In this document: piece after piece, positions 27,001-48,000 of the stretch | Numbering within the stretch: position 1 is the stretch's first letter | How the letters are laid out: the number at the start of each line of letters is the position of its first letter | Assembly (NCBI RefSeq): GCF_045037415.1 | Contig: NZ_CP173440.1 | Reading direction: 5' to 3' (one strand) | Length of the DNA: 64,000 nt | Source of the DNA: Escherichia coli | GTDB lineage: Bacteria; Pseudomonadota; Gammaproteobacteria; Enterobacterales; Enterobacteriaceae | Position numbers: made by a program

Positions 27001-30000
27001 CCCCACGAAGAGAAGGATGACAACCCGTCCAGCTTATTCTGCACCCTATTTAACGTTTGATTTTGTCGGCTCTTCTGAGGCTGTAGAAATACTGCTTAAC
27101 CATGCCCATGTTGGCGTTGGTTATGACTTTTTCTCTGCAGCTAATGGAGAGTTTAACAATGTGACAATTCTTCCTCTCGATATCGACACGAGTATATCCA
27201 ACGAGGGTATGGCATTGCGTCCGGTACCTGTTAATTCGGGTCTGAATGGTATCAAAGGAGTATCACCACTTATTCCTCCCTATTTCGTTGGTGAAAAGCT
27301 AAACATTGTCCACCCAGCACCAGTTCGTACTCAATTGATTTCTTCTTTATTGCGAGGCTAATTTCATGAGAACTTTAAACTTCAACGGTAAAATTTCGAC
27401 TCTGGAACCACTGACTGTAACAGTAAAAAATGCGGTCTCAACTTCCGGCCATCGCTTGCCTCGTAACGGTGGATTCAATGCAGCCCCGTACTTTCCAGGT
27501 ACCAGCATTCGGGGAACTCTTCGTCATGCTGCGCATAAGGTCATTGTCGATCGTGTGGGCCTTAATGCAGACGGAAAATCACCTTTCGACCTGGCAGAAC
27601 ATTTCATGCTGGCCCAGGGGGTGGATATCAATGGTGAAGCCGAAACCTTCGCGCCAGGTGAAATCAATGCTGGTGCTGAACTACGTAGCAAAAACCCGTT
27701 AATCAGCTTGTTTGGTCGTTGGGGATTAAGCGGCAAAGTTGGTATAGGGAATGCTATCCCGGATGGTGATAACCAGTGGGGGATGTTTGGTGGGGGTGCC
27801 CGCTCAATTATGTTTCAGCGTGACGAAAGTCTGATGGAGTTTCTTGAGACAGACCAGGTTGATCGTCTGGAACGCCTGCTCGAGGAACAGGCTGAGGCAA
27901 GTGTGGATATCTCTCAGATCAAAACAGAGCAGGATGCACTCAAAAAGGCGATGAAGTCGGCTGATAAAGACACCAAAGCTGAGCTTCAAATCAAAGTACG
28001 GGAGCTCGATGAAAAAATTCAGGCCCGCAAAGATCAGAAGCAGGAATCTCGCGAGTCAATTCGCCGCCCGATTGACCCGTATGAAGCGTTTATCACCGGC
28101 GCAGAACTCAGCCATCGCATGAGTATTAAAAATGCGACTGATGAGGAAGCAGGGCTTTTCATTTCTGCATTAATCCGCTTTGCAGCCGAACCACGTTTTG
28201 GCGGTCATGCGAATCATAACTGCGGTCTGGTGGAGGCTCACTGGACAGTTACGACCTGGAAGCCGGGTGAACTGGTACCAGTTACACTTGGAGAAATCGT
28301 CATCACACCGAATGGTGTTGAGATTACCGGGGACGAGTTGTTTGCTATGGTAAAGGCATTCAATGAAAATCAATCTTTTGATTTCACTGCCCGCTAACTC
28401 CAAAAGCTGGTGGATTTTAGTGGCGCTATTTAATATTTTATAATCAACCGGTTATTTTTAGAGTATTCCCCCCGTGTGCGGGGGTTATCGGCAACCTCAA
28501 TTCCTAATGGCTGTCTAAGGAAAGTATTCCCCCCGTGTGCGGGGGTTATCGGCAGGGTTTGCCCTTTTGCACCGCGCAGCGGTCGTATTCCCCCCGAGTG
28601 CGGGGGTTATCGGAGCAACGTTTCCGGATTATATGGCTGGAACGTGTATTCCCCCCGTGTGCGGGGGTTATCGGTGGTGCTCTCAACCGTCACCCGCTGG
28701 CTGGAAGTATTCCCCCCGTGTGCGGGGGTTATCGGTGGTGTTGTCCACGGTCACCCGCTGGCTGGAAGTATTCCCCCCGCATGCGGGGGTTATCGGGCAC
28801 CCTCACGGATACCTTTTGCACAGTGTTAGTATTCCCCCCGCATGCGGGGGTTATCGCCTTAGAGAAGCAAAAACCCCACCGAGGCAGGGGTATTCCCCCC
28901 GTGTGCGGGGGTTATCGGTTACTTTTTGGCAGTTGGTAAAACACTTTTGCGTATTCCCCCCGCATGCGGGGGTTATCGGCGAAAACGGCAACCTTCATAA
29001 AAACGTCTTTTGTATTCCCCCCGTGTGCGGGGGTTATCGGCCGAGATTGAGTAAAGCAAAGTAACGGCGGTGGTATTCCCCCCGCATGCGGGGGTTATCG
29101 GCAGCGTCTGAACGGACGAAACATCCCTGTTGAGTATTCCCCCGTCTGCGGGGGTTATCGGCGAGCGCTCTCCTGGTAAATCGGTAGCTCGGAGTATTCC
29201 CCCCGCATGCGGGGGTTATCGGGCTGGATTTCCGTCAGTTGGTCAGCTGCTGCTGTATTCCCCCCGTGAGCGGGGGTTATCGGTTCCGGACTCCTGTTTC
29301 CGGCAGTGGATTAAAGTATTCCCCCCGCATGCGGGGGTTAACGGCACTACCAGATCCGAATGGACACCCGTAATGAGTATTCCCCCCGCACGCGGGGGTA
29401 TCGACATAAAAACCGCAATGGTGGGGCTTTTGTTATGTGCCCCTACAAGCAGATGGGACTTTTTACAATCAAGGAAAGTTACTTTCTTCAGGATAACCCA
29501 CATTCTGTCAAATCTTGCAGGTTGCAATCAGCAAAGGCCTTACGTCGATAAATTCATGCCTTGAGCTGGTAAGGAAGTATGACGTTATAACTCTGCATTT
29601 CTGGTTGATTAAGGTAGGGCGGCATTCCTGCTTTAAAAACAATCAATAATTTTGAACGGTAGTCGTCTTGATCCCAACTGCTACCTGATGGACTAGGCAC
29701 CTGCAAAGATCCAATTTATACTGGTTATATATACAGTGTGCGCCGGGAACCGGTTAGAGATCAAGGGGTGAAAGTCCCCGACCATTGAAGGACCAGCAAT
29801 CCACAAGGTCCCCGAGTCATGCGTTGCATACCGCGAGGTATGGGGCGAAGCGTTGACAGGGGTGTTGACAGGCCAGCCATTGAGCCACGAAATGTATATT
29901 AAATTACCGGGTGCCGACGTTGTACTGTTAACGGAAGGCAACATCATAGGGTGCGATACTGCGAGTGCCACATGGACCCGGCGGGGTCTGAGACCCTGGC

Positions 30001-45000: not shown

Positions 45001-48000
45001 TGCATTCCATAGTTAGCCCACCTTCTGTGATTTGCTAAGTATTTCTTCTACATTGAGATTACGTCTCATTTTTAGTTTGTAGGGCGAAGTCGTTACCATA
45101 TCAAAGACGGTTGTTGACCTACGCATTGATTTGCCCGGCACGGTTATAGGCATCTGGCCCACAATTTTACGCCCGTCCTGTAAGCAGGCGATGAAGTGAA
45201 GGGTTGGGATCATCGACAGTAATTCCTGTGGTATAGCATTTACCATCGTTGTCGACTTTCGCTCGGAAATGGAACCATTGAAATCTGTATGTGACTGTTT
45301 TGTACCAGCACTGGTGGTGTAAGTGACCTGGTTCATTGAGACATTAGTCTGGCCGACTTTGGTCAGAACAAGCTCCTGAGTCTTCGCGTCAGTAACACGT
45401 GTGGAAATGTAGTTGTTGCAAAGGCCCGTTAAACGGTCAGCAGTATCGGCGCTGGTGGCCGATACAAAATCAGAAATGGTCTGCGTAGAGATGAACAATG
45501 CGATCTTGGCCGCGCGTCCCTGGGCGAGAAGGTTAATCAGTTGCATATTAACTGCCTGATGAGCCTCATCAATGAATATGGAAATCCTGGGCACAGTGGA
45601 CAAATCAGATGCTGTGTTATAGCGACTACCCGCCTCAGCGGCAATATCCGAAGTAATCAGCTGGGAGAGGTCCCGTGCTGTTGCCGGATCAGACAGGCCG
45701 TCCAGCGAAATGTAAAGCACGCCACCGCTGTTAAAGAGTCCATGGCTGTTAACGATGTTACGGTCAGGGTTCTCGACATCGTTCGCCGAAAGCAATATAT
45801 CCATAGGGGTCTGGGACAATCGCTTGAGCATAGGCATCAGGCTGGCAGTGATTTTGTAATAGTGCGACTCATCGCCGGAGATGTATTTAAAACATTCCAG
45901 AACCGTATCCATGCCATGCATGTTTTTGGGAGAATTGTCTTCAAAGTAGTTGCAGTGGAAATATTCTTTCAGCTTTTCGATTTCGTCTGCAAAAGTAAGA
46001 TTTGGAGATACCTGAACAGTTAAATGCCAGTCAGCCCCGAGATGGTAAGTATAAAAACCCCTGAGAGCGTTACGAGTGGTAACAATGAGATCCTGTTTAG
46101 AGCGTATGGCGTAGTAAATATTCTGGATAGTCGGTTTTGTACCACCCAGTTTCAGGGCACCTATCGCCGTTGTGACAAGCCCCTCTGCAATACGCACGAA
46201 CGGATCTTCACCTCCTTCAGTACCTGAAATAATGCTCATAATACGGGCGGAAAGGTCTGTATCCTTAACATAGTTAGCGCTGACATCATAAGATACAGAC
46301 GTTGAAGGATTGCCTGCGTGAAAATGCATAAAAGGCTTACCAAGACTTTCACATTCTTCCTTTAACCCTTCCTGCCACTGATAGTCGTTTTTAGGGTCAA
46401 CAACGAGAACGATGTGTCCAAGGTGTAGCATTGAACTGGAAAGAAGGCGCTGGAGAACCGTTTTCCCGGTACCTACGTTTCCTGTAATAAGAGTATGTCC
46501 AAAGAAATTTTCTTCATTGACGAATATCGGGATTTTTTTATCAACGCCGAAAATCGCATAATTCCCGCCCAGGTCGAAGGCAAGTTTTCGATAGTGACGG
46601 GTAACGGGATTCAATATAAACGGTAACTGCACCTCATGCATATCACTGGAAAGGTTGTGCACCTGGTAGGTACGTTCAGAGTGCTCCGGTCCCCATTTGA
46701 AACCATTGCACAGAAACGTTGTACGCTGGGGGATCACAATCTTTTCTTTCTTACGAAGGAGCTGGTAAAAACTTTTCTTCGATGGTGCTCCACCAGACTC
46801 CTGCAAACTGACCAGTTTCTGATATTTACGGTCATCAGCAAAAAAATGTGCATTATTAATCATTCGAAAATCTTCGAGTGATAAAAAATCCATCGTGCGA
46901 TGAAATAATCTCCAGTGAGCTATGAAGACCGGTACCCCGTGCCATACCCTCCATCCTGCCATCGCTATTAACCCCAGAGAGCAATAGAAGGGTATTTCAC
47001 TGATACCGTACTTACTGGTCCATGAGTCTATAAGCACGTAAGCAGAAAAAAGTATGAGTATTAGCGCTGAACGAAATTCAAGGGCAGGGCGGTAGAGCAT
47101 TTCCTGCGTATGGAGATTGTTACGGCTTCTACGTTTCATGGCTTACTTCCTGATGGTTAAAAAACGAAATAAATTCTTCGTAGAAAATGTTATTACGCAG
47201 CGCACCTTGTTGAAGGTCACTCAGTCGAACCATGTAGTGACTGATAGGCCTGCCTATACCCACCTTTAATTTCGCGACAGGAAAATGCGCGAAAGCAGCA
47301 CGCAGTTCAGTTAACTCCTCCTGACGAAAACCCCATGAAGCAATGTCTTCAGAGATTCTCAACCTCATGCAAAAATTGATATCAGTTACAACAATAGCAA
47401 GACGTAACTCTCTGGTCTGAATTGGCGAGTTATTCAGTCGTATTTTGTTTAACTGAATAATAATCGTATCAATATCAGAATGAAGCGTTTCGATGTTTCC
47501 GTCATCAGCATGCGCCTGAATGGGTGGAGTACTGGATTTTAACTGTTCTATGTTGTCTGCAATGACGACAGCCGGATCAGTGATAATTTGACTCTGACGG
47601 GAAAACAGCGCTTCAAAGTCGCTGTTAATGTCACCGATCCCCTCACCAGAATCTTCCTCTTGCGCTTCCTCTTCCGTTTGGTCGAAATCATCCTCCTCTG
47701 CCAGGTGTTTTCCGTAAACAGAGGTACTAACATCCGTTGTATGCTCTGAAAGTGACTTTTTGACCTGTGCTAGATCAACATCAGTGCTCTCAATGGTTTG
47801 ATTTATCGGGTTTATACAGCCATCACCGTACGAATATGAAGCGTAATCCGCCCAGAATTGTTCAACATCATCTTCCTGATCATCGGAAAATTCCGCTGAT
47901 GGTATGTCAGTAGGTGCATGTTCAGTTCGAGTCTGTTCAGGCGTTTGCTCTTCATAACGTTCCGGAGGGAGTGGCTCAGGTTTCACCTCAGCCAGTGGCG

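Follow-up and report, generated by a model that had tools for sequence, protein, structure and literature searches.

What selects for a dense, strongly polar run of Chi sites beside the transfer genes of a large plasmid? The question is raised by a 64,000-nucleotide stretch of Escherichia coli DNA (RefSeq assembly GCF_045037415.1, contig NZ_CP173440.1; this whole stretch is called the window below), in which Chi, the octamer GCTGGTGG read by the host enzyme RecBCD, occurs 19 times on the plus strand and once on the minus strand between 28406 and 45458. These sites lie on one side of a candidate origin of transfer (oriT) and nearly all face it. The explanation that we favour, with moderate confidence and from sequence alone, is that they form a selected, one-sided array that would control host RecBCD on double-strand ends arising at or near the transfer origin.

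An exact search of both strands finds 30 copies of the octamer in the window, 23 on the plus and 7 on the minus strand, against a mean of 1.9 and a maximum of 6 for both strands together in dinucleotide-preserving shuffles. The initial annotation of this DNA had listed 20 plus-strand and 7 minus-strand copies; the minus total stands, with one site moved from 17513 to 17503, the plus total had missed the copies at 32414, 33977 and 42745, and the plus-strand excess that it had placed at 28406-45458 is stronger than described, with 19 sites in place of sixteen. The 19 co-oriented copies start at 28406, 31883, 32414, 33400, 33977, 36293, 37212, 38517, 38898, 39558, 39926, 40880, 41261, 42093, 42243, 42745, 44293, 44446 and 45451, and the sole opposite-strand copy among them occupies 38681-38688. 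Chi is the commonest plus-strand octamer of the window, ahead even of words belonging to a repeat array of the CRISPR type. General k-mer clustering in the segment was ruled out, as with the CRISPR array masked only Chi (18 copies) and its overlapping frames recur, and any unrelated octamer reaches five copies at most. A longer dispersed repeat carrying the octamer was likewise ruled out by the unrelated flanks, which differ from copy to copy with the exception of the paralogous pair at 40880 and 61516.

Six copies are intergenic (28406, 33400, 37212, 39558, 40880 and 41261), against about 0.08 expected, and the remaining 13 are coding: in genes of the plus strand seven lie on the sense strand, and in genes of the minus strand six lie antisense (three in the S49 peptidase gene, two in a 365-aa gene and one in traD). 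Shuffling synonymous codons within genes predicts 1.60 +/- 1.16 coding copies, and none of 2000 shuffles reaches 13. Expressed as opportunity, 13 of the 20 plus-strand positions at which the encoded proteins permit Chi are used, against one of seven on the opposite strand. Use varies sharply along the locus, from 12 of 16 permissible positions between umuD and the 365-aa gene to 1/4 in traD, 0/4 in mobH, 0/2 in a 262-aa gene and 0/1 in mobI (together 1/11), with 0/2 in the cas genes. A codon or peptide artefact was ruled out by the synonymous shuffling together with the intergenic and antisense placement, as the initial annotation had argued, and both the positional and the strand bias persist in the whole-plasmid and codon-aware counts that it had proposed as a test.

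The plasmid context gives these numbers their scale. The best match to the 18 kb around the array is p5419/18_1 (NZ_ON081623.1), a 349-kb Klebsiella pneumoniae plasmid that is 99.8-99.9% identical and is typed as IncHI1B/IncFIB with a MOBH relaxase and MPF_F (MOB-suite typing gives MOBH); by this match, the window belongs to an IncHI1B/IncFIB (pNDM-MAR-type) Klebsiella resistance plasmid. That whole plasmid holds 47 plus-strand and 35 minus-strand Chi, and 19 of the plus-strand copies fall within 17 kb, a segment 13-fold denser than the rest (Poisson P = 2e-15); in a scan statistic, 20,000 simulations yielded a maximum of 12 against the 19 observed. The array amounts to 1.17 Chi per kb (1.1 on one strand), versus 0.19 per kb in the rest of the plasmid and about 0.08 per kb in other backbone regions such as Tra2. 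Over 300 Chi per Mbp have been reported for the chromosome of K. pneumoniae, so that the array is roughly four times as dense, at a strand ratio of 19:1. A complete IncHI1 plasmid (NZ_CP037875.1, 247.7 kb) repeats the pattern: its overall counts are nearly balanced, 25 plus and 23 minus, and the 12.2 kb adjoining traD/mobH hold 10 plus-strand and no minus-strand copies, versus 15 plus-strand copies in the other 235 kb (P = 1e-8).

Conservation in diverged relatives carries the argument for selection. The gene map of the window, built from the RefSeq annotation of matching records and from open reading frames (ORFs), gives the following minus-strand series, read from the oriT candidate downwards: mobI (50864-51328), the 262-aa gene (50076-50864), the MobH relaxase gene (47129-50062), the gene for the TraD coupling protein (45013-47139), the 365-aa gene (43913-45010), a DUF4400 gene (43226-43900), the S49 peptidase gene (42081-43217) and a NERD nuclease-related gene (41305-42066), beyond which lie small opposite-strand genes and hok. 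This order is syntenic in all relatives anchored on MobH. With mobH set on the plus strand, Chi on the opposite and the same strand were counted 5.1-23 kb downstream of the mobH start, giving 18:1 in the window, 17:0 in pKLZT-1 (77% MobH identity), 14:1 in a Raoultella plasmid (67%), 10:2 in IncHI2 (39%) and 9:0 in IncHI1 (40%). Counts within +/-10 kb of the S49 gene are 14:0 in K. grimontii, 11:0 in Pseudocitrobacter and 9:0 in Buttiauxella. Every syntenic relative examined therefore has the same-sided, same-oriented excess, 9-18 versus 0-2, and on the far side of oriT each MobH-anchored locus has merely 1-2 Chi per strand.

Individual sites are also retained far above the background of the aligned DNA. 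Where pKLZT-1 aligns (83% nucleotide identity), 11 of 12 Chi are kept against a background 8-mer conservation of 0.27 (p = 4.5e-6), and in the aligned DNA of the Raoultella plasmid (79%) 8 of 11 are kept against 0.18 (p = 8.6e-5); non-homologous replacement DNA in this comparison bears further Chi in the same orientation. IncHI1 and IncHI2 place their Chi at codons other than those of the window, sharing a single site at the C-terminus of S49, so that the density and orientation of the array are, on this comparison, maintained independently in these plasmids. A conserved and independently maintained array of this kind is strong comparative evidence of selection. Two sets of candidate comparisons were set aside. 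IncT-like and Citrobacter MOBH plasmids are uninformative, as their mobI and oriT do not adjoin mobH. Outside the Enterobacterales different Chi motifs occur, that of Pseudomonas hosts being GCTGGCGC; non-enteric loci from metagenome-assembled genomes, found through an S49 profile, are invalid as a control for host specificity, sharing an S49-like gene only and not the transfer module, so that the absence of Chi from them carries no information.

The fixed point to which the array relates is the putative oriT, an AT-rich, repeat-laden intergenic region at 51,329-51,922. It contains a tandem series of three palindromic units (CATTAGTAC...AAAAGTACTAATG), together with further repeats, both direct and inverted. 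It was delimited by these repeats and by positional homology, since it corresponds to the DNA between mobI and trhR in IncHI1 and IncHI2, where analogous repeats occur; on its far side, from 51.9 kb, begin trhF/H/G-type pilus genes on the plus strand. MobI-type oriTs lie directly upstream of mobI (PMC4542580). The window unites the parts of a MobI/MOBH-type module: the AT-rich repeat region upstream of mobI, MobI itself beside it, and a MOBH relaxase (NCBIfam NF041494 MobH, 209 bits, cut-off 200). MobI, a relaxosome auxiliary factor, is identified by Pfam PF19456 (76.5 bits, cut-off 26.6) and by RefSeq annotation, has no NCBIfam match and is 26% identical to the MobI of IncC. Its gene is transcribed away from the oriT candidate and towards the array, which begins about 6 kb from that candidate on the mobI side, 19 of its 20 Chi facing it. 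Chi are scarce in the intervening oriT-proximal stretch of about 6 kb, from 50864 to about 45500.

Which side of oriT enters a recipient first can be proposed by homology. With a homologous MobI-type oriT and the IncC MOBH relaxase, the mobilisation of chromosomal markers studied by Rivard et al. showed that transfer 'progresses downstream of mobI', the other side entering last (PMC7449626). On this basis, the transferred strand (T-strand) of the window would be the minus strand, with mobI first to enter, followed by mobH, traD, the Chi array, umuDC and the CRISPR locus. The initial annotation had named transfer polarity as a test of whether these Chi could act, and the polarity suggested by homology agrees with the one needed, mobI pointing from oriT to the array. 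The literature examined contained no IncHI-specific statement of the site nicked by the relaxase (nic) or of polarity, and a paper on the IncA/IncC relaxosome gives neither.

Given this polarity, the earlier claim that these Chi face RecBCD arriving from higher coordinates, for example from an end at the oriT candidate, is geometrically correct. RecBCD approaches the octamer from its 3' side and reads it on the strand that is 3'-ended at the point of entry. In a duplex that ends at nic and continues towards mobI, the plus strand is the 3'-ended one, so that all 19 Chi would be active for an enzyme entering there. Such an enzyme would cross the Chi-poor relaxosome genes and then reach the array. 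As RecBCD recognises a given Chi in roughly 30-40% of encounters, read-through of 19 sites would be negligible, and RecA loading would take the place of degradation before the enzyme came to the leading-region genes, to the CRISPR-Cas locus of type IV-A3 and to the IncHI1B replicon.

Double-strand ends of this geometry are expected in two settings. In a donor, or during vegetative growth, a fork from the vegetative origin (oriV) could run off the relaxase-nicked T-strand, its leading-strand template, and leave a one-ended break at nic, or it could stall on the head-on mobI-to-NERD operon; a homologous sister duplex would then be at hand for restart and a productive outcome. In a recipient, the leading end might become duplex during the minutes needed to transfer the remaining ~300 kb. 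We give donor-side ends somewhat more weight than recipient-side ends, and the least to both together or to another source, and the present data cannot separate donor from recipient. Some precedents exist for the individual steps. Relaxase nicking at oriT stimulates recombination in cis in donors even without transfer (reviewed in PMC6101574), plasmid-borne Chi drive a RecBCD/RecA-dependent alleviation of EcoKI restriction (PMC11109961), and Chi activity has been stated for every enteric bacterium tested, the hosts here being Klebsiella pneumoniae and related Enterobacterales. The annotation of the 349-kb and IncHI1 plasmids lists no gam, abc, psiB or ssb product; many of their genes are hypothetical, and nine proteins were scanned against Pfam. 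The proposal of the initial annotation that the array protects incoming or broken plasmid DNA is partly supported, as regards selection and geometry; it does not tell protection on entry from donor-side fork repair, and the Chi-poor ~6 kb beside nic makes simple protection of the entering plasmid an incomplete account.

A narrower explanation, which we hold to be possible but clearly less probable, confines the action of the array to the recipient, where it would neutralise RecBCD on the entering end and stand in for the psiB, ssb or ardA type genes that MOB-H plasmids lack. Its attraction lies in the gene content around the array. The inferred first-entering 6-23 kb carry, on the plus strand and pointing towards oriT, umuD (31674-32096), umuC (32096-33367), an Xre antitoxin and RES toxin pair (33468-34378), hok (35470-35628) and four hypothetical genes (36231-37205, 38470-39537, 39624-40040 and 40895-41251). 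The orientation of the genes between 23 and 41 kb makes the inferred T-strand their template, as in the leading region of F, and umuDC operons typically bound leading-region islands (PMC11541004). This F-like content (hok, and DUF905 in IncHI1) and orientation fits the entry order suggested by homology. The array thus resembles the leading-region anti-defence islands described by Samuel et al. 2024 (PMC11541004) in lying by oriT on the presumed first-entering side, in the use of the T-strand as template, in the company of hok and a toxin-antitoxin pair, and in having umuDC at its far boundary. It differs from them in being a cis-acting motif rather than a set of protein genes, and in placing the relaxase on the leading side, contrary to the assumption made there.

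No anti-defence, single-stranded DNA-binding protein (SSB) or SOS-inhibitor gene is annotated in this block, and its hypothetical plus-strand genes between 31674 and 41251 have no Pfam or NCBIfam match. PTU-HI1A likewise has no known anti-defence genes, MOB-H groups show neither an anti-defence nor a codon-adaptation peak, and 'alternative anti-defence mechanisms' have been inferred for these plasmids (PMC13478746). Two large surveys take the relaxase as marking the lagging side, and both report MOB-H plasmids without the usual leading-region signatures (PMC11541004, PMC13478746). If transfer polarity is as proposed here, the true leading region of IncHI-type plasmids may be the relaxase side, and a mis-assigned side in MobI-type plasmids would explain the absent signatures.

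Taken to its full extent, and offered tentatively, this line of thought would have IncHI-family (MOBH/MobI) megaplasmids carry a DNA-encoded counter-measure in a relaxase-side leading region: the polar array would turn RecBCD from a destroyer into a loader of RecA on the first recipient duplex, replacing psiB, ssb and anti-restriction genes. As side effects, it would limit the RecBCD-fed acquisition of spacers by type I-E CRISPR systems and promote restriction alleviation; a device acting in the recipient may equally limit RecBCD-fed CRISPR adaptation or trigger a Chi/RecA-dependent alleviation of restriction. The absence of annotated ssb, psiB and gam-like products from the 349-kb and IncHI1 plasmids, the presence of ssb and psiB on F, which has no Chi, the known effect of plasmid Chi on EcoKI, and the abundance of Chi in phages that have no RecBCD inhibitor (see below) are all in keeping with it. 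Three points speak against it. A lone incoming plasmid has no homologous partner, and linear DNA is saved by recombination and not by Chi alone, an argument made by the Smith laboratory; mobI, mobH and traD would be destroyed before RecBCD met the first Chi; and the relaxase covalently bound at the 5' end may already block the enzyme.

Ordinary replichore polarity, by which Chi would be co-oriented with replication forks as in chromosomes and the local density would have no link to oriT, is an improbable account of the array as a whole. It does account for its orientation. The GC skew of the window reverses at about 20 kb, within the IncHI1B repB segment (repB, 20,234-21,385, minus strand, located by record alignment, GC skew and ORFs), and oriV is probably near repB, at a distance of about 7-25 kb from the array and across it from oriT. 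For forks that move rightwards from this origin the plus strand is the leading strand, so that the array is also co-oriented with replication. The same holds in both whole plasmids: in NZ_ON081623.1 plus-strand Chi and positive skew dominate 0-90 kb, and minus-strand Chi and negative skew dominate 240-330 kb; in the IncHI1 plasmid one replichore has a Chi ratio of about 25:6 and the other has about 1:17, the cumulative-skew minimum lies near the RepHI1B gene, and this minimum puts oriV on the mobI side of oriT.

Fork direction explains the orientation but not the sharp-edged local density. Chi are not evenly spread along the replichore in either whole plasmid, the local excess being 13-fold in both; in the reference plasmid, the rest of that replichore carries about 10 plus-strand and 7 minus-strand copies, and Tra2 is sparse, as noted above. 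Moreover, in lineages in which other DNA now surrounds the array, it has stayed in position with respect to traD/mobH. The IncC backbone, in which oriT-mobI adjoins repA, offers a partial test: 7 of its 11 minority-strand Chi lie within 15 kb downstream of mobI (P = 8e-4) and face oriT against the local GC skew, although this is one backbone with small numbers, and plus-strand Chi are also clustered on the other side of its oriT, which lessens the help that IncC gives to an oriT-directed role.

Other Chi-rich patches occur in the two whole plasmids. A second same-strand cluster lies beside a gene for a Tus-like 'DNA replication terminus site-binding protein' (NZ_ON081623.1 245,401-255,361; NZ_CP037875.1 112,301-123,108), with 8 minus and 0 plus copies within +/-10 kb of the gene in the former and 6 minus and 0 plus in the latter. 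Its orientation suits RecBCD travelling from the terminus side back to the origin, which suggests a placement of Chi clusters on the origin side of sites where fork arrest is predictable; near the Tus-like genes there is no Ter core of the E. coli type. The tellurite-resistance ter module (NZ_ON081623.1 185-195 kb; NZ_CP037875.1 83.8-93.6 kb) is a secondary Chi-dense patch unrelated to oriT, with 7 plus and 2-3 minus copies in about 10 kb in both plasmids.

That the octamer does not act as Chi at all, being a peptide or codon by-product, the target of a DNA-binding plasmid protein or a relic, inherited by descent, of chromosomal DNA rich in Chi, is very improbable: five of the seven sense-strand sites do fall in the common Leu-Val (CTG-GTG) frame and several intergenic copies overlap terminator-like hairpins or a Shine-Dalgarno-like GGTGG, but synonymous shuffling yields 1.6 and not 13 copies, six sites are antisense and six intergenic, the flanks are unrelated, no other octamer clusters, the density is about four times that of the K. 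pneumoniae chromosome at a 19:1 strand ratio, and sites are kept above background in near relatives and placed independently in IncHI1 and IncHI2.

The preferred reading, a selected array controlling RecBCD on ends formed at or near oriT, has its own difficulties, and several observations weigh against it. The Chi-poor ~6 kb next to oriT contains mobI, mobH and traD, essential transfer genes that the array leaves uncovered with one of 11 permissible positions used; an end at nic would cost the plasmid these genes unless a homologous copy were present. Nineteen Chi also far exceed the need of a simple barrier, and what the distal sites add is explained only if ends form all along the region. 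On which side of oriT oriV lies is no help, as it is the array's side in every IncHI example examined, so that oriT-directed and replication-directed roles predict the same orientation; part of the Chi strand bias is ordinary replication polarity, which leaves the 13-fold local density as the sole component specific to oriT. For some of their Chi sites, the lineages compared share descent. Transfer polarity is carried over by homology from a MOBH12/MobI system to a MOBH11-type plasmid, and Chi activity, nic position and polarity are all predicted for this plasmid. Finally, F has the same layout of oriV, leading region and oriT, a constitutively active relaxosome and no Chi at all, so that such an array is no general requirement.

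The closest known counterparts of the array come from phages. The lambdoid phage LLS has 23 Chi, 20 of them oriented for RecBCD entering at one defined end and concentrated there (Zheng et al. 2025, PMC12315714), and lacks a recombination module and RecBCD inhibitor of its own; Chi abound in phages that have no Rec module or RecBCD inhibitor and are lacking from those with one, such as lambda (PMC12315714). The numbers and logic of LLS are nearly identical to those of the plasmid array, and the divide between IncHI-type plasmids and F, which has psiB and ssb and no Chi, mirrors the split among phages. The end in LLS, however, is a packaging (cos) end on replicating concatemers, with RecBCD-enhanced growth demonstrated, whereas the end at nic is hypothetical and would form on a circular low-copy element known here from its sequence. 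P1 carries 50 Chi, denser towards the ends of its packaged DNA, a distribution read as selection for RecBCD/RecA-dependent end processing (Subramaniam and Smith, bioRxiv 10.1101/2021.07.08.451572). Like the plasmid array, it combines a Chi density above that of the host chromosome with non-random positions tied to linear DNA ends. Its Chi, however, lie on both strands flanking pac-defined ends and rely on a terminally redundant genome, whereas the plasmid array is one-sided and the transferred strand is of unit length without redundancy.

Chromosomal Chi polarity involves the same octamer and the same enzyme, RecBCD heading towards the origin being the one that sees Chi. Chromosomal sites are fairly evenly spread, their density being about 0.2-0.3 per kb and their strand bias about 3:1; the plasmid array reaches 1.1 per kb on one strand and 19:1, and is confined to 17 kb. 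The F plasmid (NC_002483.1, 99,159 bp) has no GCTGGTGG on either strand and a leading region with ssb, psiB, hok and an antirestriction gene; its lack of Chi had already been noted (Subramaniam and Smith, bioRxiv 10.1101/2021.07.08.451572). Judged by these contents, F is the opposite strategy to that of IncHI-type plasmids. Full-text literature searches found no previous account of Chi being clustered next to oriT or within plasmid leading regions, and two leading-region studies (PMC11541004, PMC13478746) make no mention of Chi or RecBCD.

Megaplasmids of the IncHI and pNDM-MAR types are major vehicles for carbapenemase, mcr and hypervirulence genes. They have neither the anti-defence genes nor the codon-adaptation signature of F- and P-type leading regions, and how they become established was left as an open question (PMC13478746). 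A conserved Chi array by oriT offers a concrete and testable answer, in which these plasmids appear to co-opt the RecBCD pathway and not to inhibit it. A leading region on the relaxase side would further change which genes of MobI/MOBH plasmids are counted as early-entry functions. The array is a defined cis element, the recoding of which could weaken plasmid transfer or maintenance, and host recBCD alleles, for instance the recC variant spreading in ST11 K. pneumoniae (PMC10147710), are predicted to be able to modulate carriage of these plasmids.

Some features of individual sites concern their immediate surroundings. As first described, five copies start 7-33 nt past stop codons, namely those of csf2, umuC and the genes at 36231-37205, 38470-39537 and 40895-41251. 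The last of these, at 41261, lies in a hairpin at 41253-41273 (plus strand; stem CAGGGCCA/TGGCCCTG, with Chi in the loop and 3' arm; -18.4 kcal/mol, z = -1.9) between the convergent gene 40895-41251 and the NERD gene, and it is kept in both diverged relatives; this hairpin is probably a terminator that doubles as a Chi site. The intragenic Chi at 45451, in the 3' part of traD, lies in another hairpin (45,434-45,461; -16.3 kcal/mol, z = -3.4). Folding placed only these two sites in convincing hairpins, the intergenic copies at 33400, 37212 and 39558 showing none. Two paralogous genes of 118 aa (window 40,880-41,251 and 61,516-61,888, each with its upstream site) have a Chi ending 7 nt before the ATG, where the initial annotation had given a distance of 8 nt; its GGTGG stands at the Shine-Dalgarno position, and the same bases may serve both as ribosome-binding site and as Chi.

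The most oriT-distal Chi (28406) lies, as had also been reported, near the beginning of the leader (28,398-28,462, plus strand) of the CRISPR array, which is of type IV-A3. The leader was delimited by repeat search, and its sequence is identical to the p1530 leader pattern (bioRxiv 10.1101/2023.06.23.546257). The array itself has 28-nt repeats with a 61-nt period, begins with a first repeat at 28463 and runs to about 29,405 on the same strand; it follows the type IV-A3 cas genes (23.4-28.4 kb, plus strand) and is succeeded by a group II intron (ltrA; 30,101-31,588, plus strand). The far end of the window, at 1-5.5 kb, encodes a type I restriction-modification system on the minus strand.

The part of the window beyond the CRISPR locus is arranged differently from the closest complete record. 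The adjacent segments 1-11,415 and 11,408-17,550 and, separately, the repB segment at 19,152-21,299 all stand in inverted orientation with respect to that record; the last of the three stops at a copy of the insertion sequence IS4321 (21,366-22,370), which repB abuts. From residue 9 onwards the IncHI1B RepB ORF is the same as the reference at 354 of 354 residues, the first eight codons and the upstream region having been replaced at the IS4321 junction, so expression of this replicon may be altered in the window. A second, partial type IV-A3 remnant (a Cas6-like gene and a truncated DinG-like helicase gene) occurs in the reference plasmid NZ_ON081623.1, a hybrid, at 134,736-136,267, adjoining IS5 in the virulence-plasmid-derived part of that plasmid, and matches window positions 24,161-26,282 at 96.7%.

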